This document shows, in pieces, positions 43,377-48,089 of a stretch of DNA of 64,000 nt. The notes below the pieces were generated by a model. It was not told where the DNA came from. It saw only the letters and a program-made list of their open reading frames with translations, and made no database searches. This DNA comes from Eledone cirrhosa (lineage: Eukaryota). The stretch's first letter is position 1, and the number at the start of each line of letters is the position of its first letter. The stretch lies in contig OZ024755.1 in assembly GCA_964016885.1 (NCBI GenBank), positions 3,596,001 to 3,660,000 of the forward strand, written 5' to 3'. The translations under genes were made by a program, and so were the position numbers.

Positions 43377-43469
43377 ATGGATGCTTTTTGTCCAACCGAA
43401 CTATTTATCTTTCTAATCCTCCTCCCGGTGGTCATATTGATAGCAAACGCACTCAACCATGGAAGATGA
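43377..43469 (+). CDS. Putative 30-aa hydrophobic micropeptide MDAFCPTELFIFLILLPVVILIANALNHGR
   Basis: ATG to TGA, a 15-aa hydrophobic run, GTAAGT donor 10 nt after the stop; its paralog at 47988 keeps frame and hydrophobicity. Confidence 0.55.
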   Translation: MDAFCPTELFIFLILLPVVILIANALNHGR

Positions 43470-46430
43470 TGACATTAAGTAAGTATTTCACTTATGTTAA
43501 TAGTAAAAGACATTCTGCCCTCTTCCATCTCTGCCCCAACCCCGCTAATATATAATCCATTCATTTGAGGGATCTCTTGGAAGGCGGCGAAGCTGCAGTC
43601 GGGGTTTTGGAAAAATATCTAGATATATTTTGTCAATTCTTTCCTCATATTTATAATTTGATACATGTATATGTATATATATATATATATATATATATAT
43701 ATATATATATATATATATATATAATTATATATATATATATATATAATTATATATATATATATATATATATATATATATATATAATTATATATATATATAT
43801 ATATATATATATATAATTATATATATATATATATATATATATATATATAATTATATATATATATATATATATAATTATATATATATATATATATAATTAT
43901 ATATATATATATATATAATTATATATATATATATATATAATTATATATATATATATATATAATTATATATATATATATATATATATATATAATTATATAT
44001 ATATATATATAATTATATATATATATATATAATTATATATATATATATATAATTATATATATATATATATAATTATATATATATATATATAATTATATAT
44101 ATATATATATAATTATATATATATATATATATAATTATATATATATAATTATATATATATATATATATATAATTATATATATATATATATAATTATATAT
44201 ATATATATATAATTATATATATATATATATATATAATTATATATATATATATATAATTATATATATATATATATAATTATATATATATATATATAATTAT
44301 ATATATATATATATAATTATATATATATATATATATATATATATATATATAATTATATATATATATATATATATATAATTATATATATATATATATATAT
44401 ATAATTATATATATATATATATATATAATTATATATATATATATATATATAATTATATATATATATATATAATTATATATATATATATATATATATATAA
44501 TTATATATATATAATTATATATATATAATTATATATATATATATATATAATTATATATATATATATATATATAATTATATATATATATATATATATAATT
44601 ATATATATATATATATATATATATAATTATATATATATATATATATATAATTATATATAATTATATATATATATAATTATATATAATTATATATATATAT
44701 AAATATATATATAATTATATATATATATATATATAATTATATATAATTATATATATATATATATATAATTATATATATATATATAATTATATATATATAT
44801 ATAATTATATATAATTATATATATATATATATATAATTATATATATATATGAGAGTATTGAAGTTTGCTTGAAGCATTGTGGAACAATAAGTAAATATTT
44901 ATAAGTCGTTTGGAAGCCTCGACAATGCAAATGGGTAAATCTCCGGGTAACAAGGTACGGTGGTGGAGAGAGAGATATGTAAGTGGGTGTACGTTGAGAT
45001 GCGTGGTGTGTATAAGATGTGTGAGATGTGTAGAATGAAGGGAAGAGTAAAAGAATAAAAATAATAATAACAACACAAGAGAGAGAGTTACCTTGGGAGA
45101 GATTTATATATAATTATATATATATATATATATAATTATATATATATATATATATATATAATTATATATATATATAATTATATAATATATAATTATATAT
45201 ATATATATATATATAATTATATATATATATATATATATATATATATATATATATAATTATATATATATATATATATATATATATAATTATATATATATAT
45301 ATATATATATAATTATATATATATATATAATTATATATATATATATAATTATATATAATATATATATATATATAATTATATATATATATATAATTATATA
45401 TAATTATATATAATTATATATAATTATATATAATTATATATATATATATAATTATATATAATTATATATATATATATAATTATATATATATATATATATA
45501 TATATATATATGAGAGAGAGAGTAAAAAGGTTGAGAAACGGTTCTCTAGGTTGTGGGATTGTAACGTCAAGTTACTGTTGTTTCACCAAAGTTCGAACTC
45601 GATGCATAGTTTCCAGTATGTACTTTGGGGTTGTAATATTTATAATTGTTTCTACTTTAGGCACAAGGCCAGCAATTAACCAGTACATTACTGGTACTTT
45701 ATTTTATCGATCCGGTAAGGATGAAAGGTAAAGTTAACCTCGGCGGGATTTGAACCCCAGACTGTAAAGGGACGTAACTATGTTAGAAAGCATGGCGTCC
45801 AACCCTTTACCGATACTGCCAATTCAATTAATAATAAGTATGGTCGAGGTATCAAATTAAGCTATTCAGGTGTGACGCGCGTTTCACAATTGATCAGCTC
45901 AAAGTTCGATCTCTATCGTTCGTATCTGACTCTGGAATCAAAAGCTCGGCAGACTGCTGTTAGCTTAAATATTTGGCCTGCTGTCATTTCACAACTAGTT
46001 GATGTTGTCAAAATTCATACGAAAGAGTTTTATTTCTATCTTAGAAACCAGCTCTCGTTCTATCGGAAAAAAATTAGATAATTATAGAACCAGATGAACG
46101 TACATTCATACATACATACATACATACATACATACATACATACATACATACATACATACATTTCAAAATGTTTCATCTAACAACTGCATATACACATGTA
46201 CAGATACAAAACATATACACATGCACACACACAACTCAAAACATACACATCCACACATACAATAACATCCATATCTACACATGTATGCATGCAGACATAC
46301 ATATCTACCTAGTTGATGTTGTGTAAATTCCAATGAGAGAGTCGTGTGTCTATGTTAGAAACCGACTCTCTCTCTCTCTATTTGGTAACAATTTGTGAAA
46401 TTATAAAACCAGAACAACATACATACGTAC

Positions 46431-47056
46431 ATGATGGCTGCCCCCTCGTTATCGAGTATGACCATTGCACGATATAGCATTATTAATAATTATTAATTAA
46501 TTCTATCGTGCAATGCCTGTGCGTGAAGATATTTTTTAAAGTGAGGAAAGACTGTGCACTGAGCCAATCCCACTCTCTGAGCGACAGTAGCTATAACCCG
46601 AAAAGAAGAAAAATTCAACATCATCGGTAACTACTGAACCGCAGGTTTTATATAGGAGTTATCCCAGTTTCCTGAGTTGCCTTCTCCTAGAAGAATGCCC
46701 TGACAAAGATTAGGGGTCCTTCACTCCCAGTGGTTTAACCGCGCGATCGGCTGTCCAGCCCAACTATTTCTATGTCCCCACGCATATACATACACATACA
46801 TATGTATATGTGTATATACATACATATGTACATGTGTATACACATATATGTACATGTGTACATACATATTTACACAGTTTGGGGATGGCCGTTGACACTT
46901 ATGAGTCAGGTTTGTTTTTTGTCCTGCAGGGTGTCCAAAATCACCCTCCTCTCCAAGTAAACTTGGTGGGGTTGCCGGTTTAGTCGCCGACGACCCGACC
47001 ATGTGACAGGTTGTACTGGGTTACATGTTAACAGTACCACTCAAGAGTGACCCGAC
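46431..47056 (-). mobile_element. Probable RTE-related non-autonomous retroelement
   Basis: Insertion absent from duplication copy 1; on - strand it has GGCGACTAAACCGGCAACCCC at the 5' side and CTCGATAACGAGGGGGCAGCCATCAT at the 3' end, which resemble RTE termini. Confidence 0.55.
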
Positions 47057-47177
47057 ATACATACATATATACATAAAATGTCCTTAAAACATTTGTATGT
47101 GTATGAGTGTGTATGTCTGTACGTGTGAGAGAGAGATTGGTGACAGACAAACATCATTCATTACATGGTGCAAATTA

Positions 47178-47246
47178 TGTAAACAGAGATAACTGTCGAA
47201 GGTATTGGTCACCATGACAACAATACAACGCTGTTGCCATAATAAA
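47178..47246. promoter_or_regulatory. Duplicated forkhead plus X-box module (second X-box degraded)
   Basis: TGTAAACA at 47178-47185; GTCACCATGACAAC at 47208-47221; GTTGCCATAATAAA at 47233-47246. Confidence 0.5.
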
Positions 47247-47987
47247 ACAATGCATTTATTTTTTCTTCTTCTTCTTTCGAAGATTAAATATATGATTTAA
47301 TATCGTTTTGCTCCTCGCTTAAACTGGTCTAAGATACTCAGTTTAGGTAAGGAAAAACAAACGATACAACAATTCTGTTGAAATTCCAGATTTCAAGTAA
47401 TTTTCTGATAGAAAATACACTTCCGATATTTTCTCTCGTTGTCACGTACATGGTGACATCGTCTTACATCTTTTTTAGTCATCTAGCTATTAAACATAGG
47501 TATTTACCATTGGTGCCAACGTTTCGATCAACTTAATCAACTTAATTTCACTACGACCACGTGATAAAAATACACACTGTCAATTTAGTCAATATCTACA
47601 CAGTGTCAATCTACTCAATATCTAGACATTGTCAATCTACTCAATATCTAGACACTGTCAATCTAGTCAATATCTACACACTGTCAATCTATTTTATATC
47701 TACACACTGTCAATCTATTCTATATCTACACACTGTCAATCTAGTCAATATCTACACACTGTCAATCTAGTCAATATCTACACACTGTCAATCTATTCTA
47801 TATCTACACACTGTCAATCTTGTTAATATCTACACTGACAATTTAGACATACACAGACACAGACAAACTGACGGAGAGACATAGATAGATAGAGAGAGAG
47901 AGAGAGAGAGAGAGAGAGAGAGAGAGAGAGAGGGAGAGAAACATACAGGAAAGTTGAAGTTATAGAGGAAAGTTATAACGTTGAAGA

Positions 47988-48089
47988 ATGGATATTTTTT
48001 TACCAACCGACCTAATTGTGTTTCTAATCATTCTCCTACTAATTATATTGGTAGCAAACGGACTCAACCAGCAACGAGGAGGAAGATGA
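47988..48089 (+). CDS. Putative 33-aa hydrophobic micropeptide MDIFLPTDLIVFLIILLLIILVANGLNQQRGGR
   Basis: Paralog of 43377-43469 with the same start and stop context, an in-frame 9-nt indel and a donor just after the stop. Confidence 0.55.
   Translation: MDIFLPTDLIVFLIILLLIILVANGLNQQRGGR

Follow-up and report, generated by a model that had tools for sequence, protein, structure and literature searches.

The 64-kb window analysed here (the whole stretch of DNA under study) contains a tandem duplication in which each copy carries one short plus-strand ORF, of 30 amino acids in copy 1 and 33 in copy 2 (Table 1). Both ORFs translate as the initial annotation had given them, and start, stop, frame and hydrophobicity are kept between the copies. 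The duplicated unit is larger than the 1.5 kb originally assigned to it, with copy 1 beginning at about 42120 and copy 2, which contains a transposable element (TE) insert, at about 46296. Relatives of the head element that opens copy 1 are all local, among the 40 candidates scored.

Table 1. Features of the tandem unit and its surroundings, in window coordinates.
Feature	Position	Strand	Remarks
Head element A, non-coding 5' start of copy 1	42120-42250		TTAG acceptor-like site at 42182
Copy-1 conserved upstream block, likely promoter/enhancer (predicted)	42405-42853		22/438 differences from copy 2
X-box 1	42479-42492	+	Exact match to GTHNYY-AT-RRNAAC; kept in copy 2
X-box 2	42504-42517	-	Exact match; 25 bp from X-box 1; lost in copy 2
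Minisatellite (~26 bp), then (GATA)n/(GA)n, copy 1	42908-43256		
Purine-rich leader, likely 5' UTR of first exon (predicted)	43338-43376	+	
ORF 1 (P0001), 30 aa	43377-43469	+	Acidic N-terminus, 14-residue hydrophobic core (residues 9-22), basic C-terminus
Donor-like GTAAGT, copy 1	43479-43484	+	9 nt past stop
Head element B, extra, younger copy of head A	45985-46110		14/128 differences from head A
Head element C, copy-2 positional homolog of head A	46296-46432		27/129 differences
Dispersed transposable element, copy 2 only	46432-47052		Nearest relatives 90% identical
Copy-2 conserved upstream block	47135-47574		
Copy-2 retained X-box	47208-47221	+	
Copy-2 counterpart of minisatellite/(GATA)n/(GA)n tract	about 47571-47869		
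ORF 2 (P0002), 33 aa	47988-48089	+	Core of 14/14 NTN codons
Donor-like GTAAGT, copy 2	48096-48101	+	6 nt past stop
Scaffold gap	48932-49131		200 N

The ORF DNA, the upstream block, P0001 and P0002 each have at least two matches in the octopus assembly, and no further copies of the unit were found in 150 kb of neighbouring DNA. The unit is thus a local duplication and not the dispersed transposon that the initial annotation had allowed for. In contigs of DNA run X1, which is possibly non-independent of the assembly, the copy-1 ORF is present with 0 differences over 43338-43494. Contigs of this run also show copy-2 letters at 43368-43391, and the run hints at extra copies beyond those assembled. 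If copy 2 has a downstream exon, or the unit additional copies, these would be located within the scaffold gap or past it. Because the 884-kb contig to the right of the gap appears inverted, a true synteny between RFX and TBC1D32, on which comparison with other cephalopods was to be based, is doubtful; the adjacency of TBC1D32 probably stems from this inversion.

The shape of the hydrophobic ORF is non-random. NTN codons occupy 13 of the 14 core positions in ORF 1 and all 14 in ORF 2. At least 13 NTN codons in 14 consecutive positions are found in 2 of 198 ATG-initiated ORFs of 25-45 amino acids in the window, these two being ORF 1 and ORF 2, and in 0 of 210 ORFs of the same length range in a 60-kb comparison region. 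A comparable hydrophobic frame appeared in 5 of 20,000 shuffles of the unit. One of the 12 core substitutions between the copies falls at codon position 2 (P = 0.03-0.09), so that evidence for constraint at this position is only borderline. Both ORFs combine A at -3 with G at +4, follow closely on an in-frame stop, and differ from each other by an in-frame indel.

The two peptides are 57% identical. Their best 19-residue windows have a hydropathy of 2.6-3.0 and their cores a KD value of 3.5-4.0. At 14 residues, or 18 counting ANxL, the core is short for a membrane span; 14 residues is within the 7-15 residues spanned by signal h-regions according to the available text of PMC12190922. Ahead of the helix lie D2 and either E8 or D8, and behind it either H28 and R30 or R30 and R33, such that both peptides have an acidic N-flank of two residues and a basic C-flank with one or two Arg. 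The flanks of Nexo signal anchors are biased towards positive inside and negative outside (available text of PMC13220792), and because the flank charges match this bias we predict an N-out/C-in topology. The charge pattern thus favours an N-out/C-in single-pass peptide over a regulin.

The DNA around the ORFs suggests a simple exon structure. No ATG occurs in 43260-43376, an in-frame TGA lies 6 nt before the ATG of ORF 1, and in both copies the last 117-138 nt before the ORF are free of ATG. As previously reported, a GTAAGT follows each stop codon; the copy-1 donor context, TAA/gtaagt, resembles the CAA/gtaagt donors of the RFX gene. The sole upstream acceptor candidate is purine-rich, with a pyrimidine fraction of 0.16-0.26 as against 0.74-0.84 for four real RFX acceptors, and placement of the ORF in a first exon is therefore favoured. 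Head element B, with a TTAG at about 46044, is the only non-repeat candidate for a 3' exon of copy 1. Candidate downstream exons at 45490-45645 and 45870-46081 were rejected as dispersed repeats. A minus-strand frame across the post-donor block was also rejected, since indels between the copies break it. No plus-strand host gene crosses the site; RFX ends at 38080.

Upstream of the ORFs, the unit is enriched in candidate RFX-binding motifs. With the X-box consensus GTHNYY AT RRNAAC as printed in 10.1101/2020.08.21.260547, the window contains four strict matches (0.67 expected; 0 of 100 shuffles reach four), three of them within the unit: copy 1 has two and copy 2 has one. A further 150 kb of DNA contains 0 strict matches. 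The motifs lie about 770-900 nt upstream of the ORFs, with 3-7 ATGs between, and 4.4 kb past the stop codon of RFX, and they could constitute an RFX autoregulatory enhancer instead of a micropeptide promoter. TBC1D32, taken as an X-box control, has 0 strict matches in 70 kb, in which its first exon was not located. An O. bimaculoides RFX protein was found (A0A0L8FX82).

Divergence between the copies is strikingly uneven. The ORFs differ by 19 substitutions in 84 nt and the flanks by 36 in 641 (Fisher P = 2e-6), such that the ORF differs about four times more than most flanking DNA; the best 84-column window has P = 0.0004 in 20,000 permutations. Along the unit, the differences form a mosaic of 27/129 in the head, 22/438 in the X-box block, 0/42 in the leader bin, 19/84 in the ORF and 11/154 in the intron. 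The peak extends from about 10 nt before the ATG to the donor, with 0-8% divergence on either side. In the best-conserved upstream stretch, 42668-42853, 4 of 186 columns differ and there is a 1-nt indel, in good agreement with the roughly 5 differences in 190 nt noted at the outset. The non-coding head (21%) is as diverged as the ORF (P = 0.86).

The initial annotation read the ORF divergence as diversifying selection, and its codon counts are correct: an amino-acid change affects 12 of 28 aligned codons and no codon change is purely synonymous. However, to describe this as an absence of synonymous change is misleading, since the NG86 method assigns 4.5 synonymous differences over 20.6 sites, within double-hit codons. 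With dN at 0.27 and dS at 0.26, dN/dS is about 1.06 (Fisher P = 1.0, a test of low power given 21 synonymous sites), and dN does not significantly exceed dS in the comparison of ORF 1 with ORF 2. The 9-nt indel assigned to the frame reflects one of two possible alignments; from ATG to donor the copies differ by 6 nt in net length. Eight of the 19 changes are grouped within 15 nt and could represent one complex mutation, and seven ORF codons carry two changes (P = 0.007). The ORF does carry a real divergence peak, but with a dN/dS of about 1, raised synonymous sites and an equally diverged head, diversifying selection is only partly borne out. The pattern fits selection that holds two versions apart against gene conversion, rather than an accelerated amino-acid clock. 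Peaks of divergence between copies that undergo gene conversion have been described as a mark of selection (available text of PMC3924837).

Database searches returned no relatives of the peptides. Exact protein look-up matched 0 of 2 peptides, Pfam gave 0 families for either (its filters drop matches above about E 0.1) and the PDB gave 0 matches for P0001 and 0 for P0002. A phmmer search of 1.84 billion representatives, in which a 33-amino-acid hydrophobic query has little power, gave 0 matches at E <=0.001, and the best ESM Atlas scores, 0.84 and 0.77, are below the lead threshold. There was no regulin among the 10 weak hits of a profile search against the PDB; one of these hits, to connexin-43 helix 4 (E = 0.1), was rejected as chance, connexins being, to our knowledge, chordate-specific. 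When the Sarcolipin model PF05366 was run against the octopus assembly, the locus was not among the 8 sub-threshold hits. Regulins have WLL or Trp in the C-terminal half and Lys, Arg or Gln at the N-terminal end of the helix (10.1101/2020.07.19.211243); neither peptide contains W, and residue 8 is acidic in both. The regulin kinship first considered for these peptides is therefore not upheld. A literature search, with supplementary tables outside its scope, found nothing on octopus micropeptides, mollusc sarcolamban or fragments of the peptides, and nothing relevant on how signal peptides evolve.

Taken together, these observations make orphan micropeptide genes a credible but unproven interpretation of the locus. 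Our leading reading, to which we give a probability of roughly 0.4, is that the unit comprises two tandem paralogous genes for single-pass membrane micropeptides, which are under RFX control and are kept distinct by selection against conversion. Each gene would consist of an X-box promoter block, a first exon with the entire ORF and an intron just past the stop. Expression would probably be driven by an RFX factor, in ciliated cells or sperm. The 30- and 33-codon frames would probably encode membrane micropeptides, with the N-terminus out and the C-terminus in, that may associate with a membrane protein as small accessory subunits. The duplication is likely to be old, at about 21-26% neutral divergence, and later gene conversion is likely to have brought promoter, leader and intron back to 0-8%. 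The head element would have been spared because the TE insertion blocks conversion tracts, and the ORF most probably through selection for two distinct helices. A more ambitious version, in which the genes belong to an octopus-specific, RFX-driven ciliary or sperm family that sits beside its own regulator, includes extra copies and keeps its helices distinct in the face of conversion, is doubtful; if true, such a family would be as expected for a gamete-recognition subunit or one that tunes sensory channels.

The same features could also arise if the ORFs are remnants of a hydrophobic exon that was formerly coding and is now unexpressed or in decay, with the upstream block kept as an RFX enhancer and the peak reflecting a chance gap between conversion tracts or a mutation cluster. 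The dN/dS of 1.06, the equal divergence of ORF and non-coding head, the seven double-change codons, the lack of a clear downstream exon and the absence of the peptides from every protein collection searched all agree with this account. We nevertheless consider it unlikely, although a serious contender, because the start, Kozak context, frame, stop, donor and all-hydrophobic core have outlasted 19 substitutions and an indel, and the peak is confined to the interval from just before the ATG to the donor. Rather unlikely, too, is a prepro-peptide, in which a cleavable signal ending in A-N-A or A-N-G frees a peptide of 3 or 6 residues that is amidated through the terminal Gly-Arg. Signal peptides typically swap hydrophobic residues at near-neutral rates, small residues are kept at -3/-1 of the candidate cleavage site in both copies (A25 to G), GGA AGA TGA ends both ORFs so that both peptides end G-R, and the 14-residue core suits an h-region. 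However, the n-region of both peptides has two acidic residues and no K/R and is net negative, whereas positive n-region charge matters in small eukaryotic secretory proteins (available text of PMC12190922). Past the candidate cleavage site there are just 5-8 residues, and the mature peptides would differ in length and sequence.

Other explanations reassign the ORF to a larger transcript. It is improbable that it serves as an upstream ORF, within alternative first exons that were duplicated, and that the ATGA overlap starts a longer protein with its later exons inside the scaffold gap or past it. The downstream start would read M-M-T-L or M-I-L and be followed by a phase-1 intron. Overlap, frame and intron phase are common to both copies and the sequence to the right of the gap is probably mis-oriented, but AGA-TGA yields ATGA automatically, inspection by eye of the high-complexity frames in the distal 20 kb of the inverted contig revealed no matching coding exon, and the closest open candidate, at 45870, belongs to a dispersed repeat. 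We think it highly improbable that the hydrophobic ORF is the pyrimidine tract of a micro-exon of 35 or 41 nt (43444-43478, 48055-48095) that encodes an acidic stretch in frame +1. Its AG is kept in both copies, with no other AG in the 28 nt upstream; each length leaves a remainder of 2 on division by 3, and when read in frame +1 several changes appear to be synonymous. Yet the pyrimidine fraction is 0.58-0.63, below that of the four real acceptors, a pyrimidine tract does not explain why the second position is T in 14 codons running, and no plus-strand host gene crosses the site. True regulins of the sarcolipin/sarcolamban family that inhibit SERCA in muscle are likewise a very poor prospect. 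Size and single helix agree, and the T-E-L-F stretch of copy 1 presumably recalls this family, but copy 2 is without it, the Pfam, Sarcolipin-model and PDB searches gave no match, the Trp/WLL and pre-helix Lys/Arg/Gln features are missing, and the charge pattern is opposite to that of an N-cytosolic peptide, the orientation of regulins.

If the paired micropeptide genes are real, they would be among the smallest cephalopod genes, missed by standard annotation and without known relatives. [quoted passage not shown] Octopus RNA-seq data that already exist, together with three or four public genomes, allow a direct test of the locus. The apparent inversion of TBC1D32 also points to an error of scaffolding, which would lead synteny studies of this region astray.

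Several known systems share parts of this arrangement. The regulins sarcolipin, phospholamban and sarcolamban are alike in length and single helix, and supply the accessory-subunit role as a working analogy; the octopus peptides differ in having neither WLL/Trp nor a basic residue or Gln before the helix, and their predicted topology is opposite. Similar in form are smORF single-pass micropeptides and type III (Nexo) anchors, with about 30 codons, one helix, an acidic N-flank and a basic C-flank (available text of PMC13220792), although the core here is shorter than the mean span of roughly 25 amino acids given there for Nexo anchors. Like smORF micropeptides, the ORFs escape annotation owing to their size; unlike known examples, they have no sequence match and occur as two paralogs at 57% identity. 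As in RFX/DAF-19 targets of ciliated cells, an exact consensus X-box lies in a conserved upstream block, but the sites here are predicted and stand about 770-900 nt from the ATG, compared with 181 bp in the cited worm example. Exon 5 of the human red/green opsins likewise combines low flank divergence with a sharp coding peak that includes synonymous sites (available text of PMC3924837); here, by contrast, we infer conversion from a within-genome mosaic with no outgroup, and the peak spans a whole 30-codon gene.

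Both short reading frames of the initial annotation are borne out exactly, at 30 and 33 amino acids; they sit inside a local duplication, and their peptides share 57% identity. Searches of the 3.0-Gb octopus genome assembly G000 returned two matches apiece for the ORF DNA, the upstream block and each peptide, all counts being lower bounds, and the sole dispersed-repeat portion was the copy-1 tail (43585-43660). That the host is an octopus follows from the C-terminal 49 residues encoded by the upstream gene, which share 94% identity with an O. bimaculoides protein. Our recount of the first 28 codons also agreed with the earlier one, with 19 of 84 nucleotides and 12 amino acids changed. 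The flanking blocks differ at 36 of 641 positions (P = 2e-6 against the ORF), and when all 821 aligned columns are permuted, a window of equal divergence arises with P = 0.0004. Contigs of the public sequencing run X1, which covers 29 of 30 bins and is taken as DNA for that reason (its kind is not on record, and it may not be independent of the assembly), match the copy-1 ORF with 0 differences and also carry the copy-2 letters; assembly error within the ORFs is therefore unlikely. The ORF pair is a real, non-random feature, and the two frames are probably orphan micropeptide genes.

Features of the duplicated unit and its right-hand surroundings
Feature	Position	Strand	Remark
ORF 1	43377-43469	+	copy 1
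ORF 2	47988-48089	+	copy 2
Copy-2 head	46296-46432		positional homologue of copy-1 head
Transposon	46432-47052		in copy 2 only
X-box	42479-42492		exact consensus match, copy 1 conserved block
X-box	42504-42517		exact consensus match, copy 1 conserved block
X-box	47208-47221		exact consensus match, copy 2 conserved block
200-N gap	48932-49131		followed on right by TBC1D32 exons (-)
TBC1D32 penultimate exon	53004-53204	-	

The evidence that both ORFs are coding is good but circumstantial, short of proof. Across the core (residues 9-22), T occupies codon position 2 in 13/14 codons of ORF 1 and 14/14 of ORF 2. With ORFs containing trinucleotide-repeat runs left out, such a run occurs in 2 of the 198 ATG-initiated ORFs of 25-45 amino acids in the window, solely these two, in 0/210 in a 60-kb control and in 5/20,000 shuffles of the duplicated unit. 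Core substitutions lie at codon positions 1 or 3 in 11 of 12 cases (P = 0.03 unweighted; P = 0.08-0.09 with a doubled mutation rate at G/C). Each start codon sits between A at -3 and G at +4, with an in-frame stop 6 nt before it, and no ATG occurs within the preceding 117-138 nt in either copy. The donors after the ORFs are similar to genuine RFX-gene donors. Because the sole upstream acceptor candidate is purine-rich (pyrimidine fraction 0.16-0.26 versus 0.74-0.84 at the four RFX acceptors found), the exon with the ORF is more likely to be the first of its gene. The unique sequence 3' of the copy-1 donor is head element B alone, an extra copy of the copy-1 head, and the remainder tested is repeats. 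We put the probability that the ORFs are translated now, or were until recently, at about 0.7.

Divergence along the unit is 27/129 (21%) in the head element, with the copy-2 transposon set aside, 22/438 (5%) in the X-box block, 0/42 in the leader bin, 19/84 (23%) in the ORF and 11/154 (7%) in the intron. The head is more diverged than the X-box block (P = 2e-7) and the intron (P = 0.0008). Among the 40 of 4,581 candidates scored, the nearest relatives of the copy-2 transposon are 10% away, which weakly suggests that it predates a 5% split. From this mosaic we infer an old duplication of the unit, after which gene conversion would have acted over promoter, leader and intron and spared the ORF. 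A divergence peak between converted flanks is described in PMC3924837 as a signature of selection keeping two functions. The initial annotation proposed diversifying selection, and the peak over the immediate flanks is real, but the head is as diverged as the ORF (P = 0.86) and NG86 gives dS 0.26 and dN 0.27 (ratio 1.06). That 8/19 ORF changes fall within 15 nt counts against selection. Its statement that no synonymous change is present holds per codon but misleads, since seven codons have changed at two positions (P = 0.007), 4-5 of these changes being synonymous. For an assumed neutral rate of 7-10%, the non-synonymous excess has P = 1e-4 to 3e-3 and the synonymous one is not significant (P = 0.06-0.15); under either rate the ORF is distinct from its immediate flanks, in a comparison of two paralogues of one genome without an outgroup.

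The X-boxes, which are new relative to the initial annotation, match the RFX consensus GTHNYY AT RRNAAC (10.1101/2020.08.21.260547). The window holds four strict matches against 0.67 expected, a number reached in 0/100 shuffles, and none occurred in 150 kb of other DNA scanned. A looser consensus than the one printed there gave 13 matches against 6.5 expected (4/100 shuffles reach 13). The fourth strict X-box (13258-13271) lies inside an RFX intron and is a possible autoregulatory site. Ciliary genes are under RFX control (10.1101/2020.08.21.260547), and by extension to octopus the X-boxes point to ciliated cells or sperm rather than muscle, although they could equally serve the RFX gene itself. 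An attempt to use TBC1D32 as a positive control did not locate its promoter.

The upstream gene, read from the plus strand, codes for an RFX factor, with DNA-binding exons at 11264 and 12165; six exons match protein P0003 and end at 38077. Where copy 1 begins, an AATAAA (42318-42323) precedes a GT-rich tract and could mark a distal RFX poly(A) site; copy 2 has CATAAA instead. Two more RFX genes (G000:C11:24970712-24979496 and C11:46147011-46147774) have the same split DNA-binding-domain exons, which suggests three genes of this type in the assembly. A 513-amino-acid open frame in an RFX intron (31406-32947, minus strand) resembles, by eye, a LINE reverse transcriptase. The last TBC1D32 exon, by contrast, has plus orientation and lies at a distance of 880 kb, 1 kb past another 200-N gap (region G000:C15:4529004-4530313). 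On the simplest reading, the scaffold probably carries the 884-kb contig that separates the two gaps in inverted orientation, and the RFX-TBC1D32 synteny proposed initially is therefore probably an artefact. Near the far end of this contig is a 396-codon high-complexity open frame (L020:7921-9108, plus strand). A 652-codon open frame at 53107-55065 (minus strand) is built from tandem 72-bp units, duplicates of the region around the TBC1D32 intron-exon junction beside the penultimate exon; further junction repeats of a similar kind occur at 56475-56647 and 59135-59496.

Run X1 shows at least five local haplotypes at 42420-42608 and 43499-43547, in a reading of 8 of 94 pieces. At least five distinct overlapping contigs meet at position 42506 (records 1-4, with 8-11 differences each, and one of depth 4.2), exceeding the number that two loci of a single diploid would yield. 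Directly past the donor the depth is 20-26, across the ORF it is 4-9, and third-type variants occur at 43509-43547. As a lead only, this would be consistent with additional copies whose ORFs diverge too far for alignment at 85%, possibly collapsed or within the gap, but also with pooled samples, another population or error contigs.

A peptide this short would exit the ribosome before its helix emerges, and its insertion would be post-translational. In both peptides the helix is preceded by two acidic residues and followed by one or two Arg, the pattern of Nexo (type III) signal anchors, negative outside and positive inside (PMC13220792), and translocation of positively charged tails is reportedly disfavoured by the ER membrane complex (PMC10200711). 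For these reasons we favour an uncleaved peptide, N-terminus out and C-terminus in, that would assist a ciliary or sperm membrane protein as its accessory subunit, the helices of the two copies tuning that protein differently. Secretion after signal cleavage keeps real support from the small residues at -3/-1 and the terminal G-R in both copies, but the n-region is acidic (compare PMC12190922) and the cargo would be just 5-8 residues. The ATGA stop-start overlap in both copies leaves some room for a less likely reading, in which the hydrophobic ORF would be a uORF of a longer, unassembled gene. The full model, a type III peptide driven by RFX whose paralogues are held apart by selection, is tentative, at somewhat under even odds.

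The peptides had no match in Pfam, the PDB or 1.84 billion representatives, and nothing above the lead threshold of the ESM Atlas, all searches of low power for 30-residue hydrophobic queries; they were absent from the exact-sequence collection searched, and a literature search found nothing on them. The suggested regulin membership fails, with no profile match and without the WLL/Trp and pre-helix basic features described for sarcolambans (10.1101/2020.07.19.211243). The proposed peptide would work in the manner of a regulin- or FXYD-type subunit, yet be a member of neither family.
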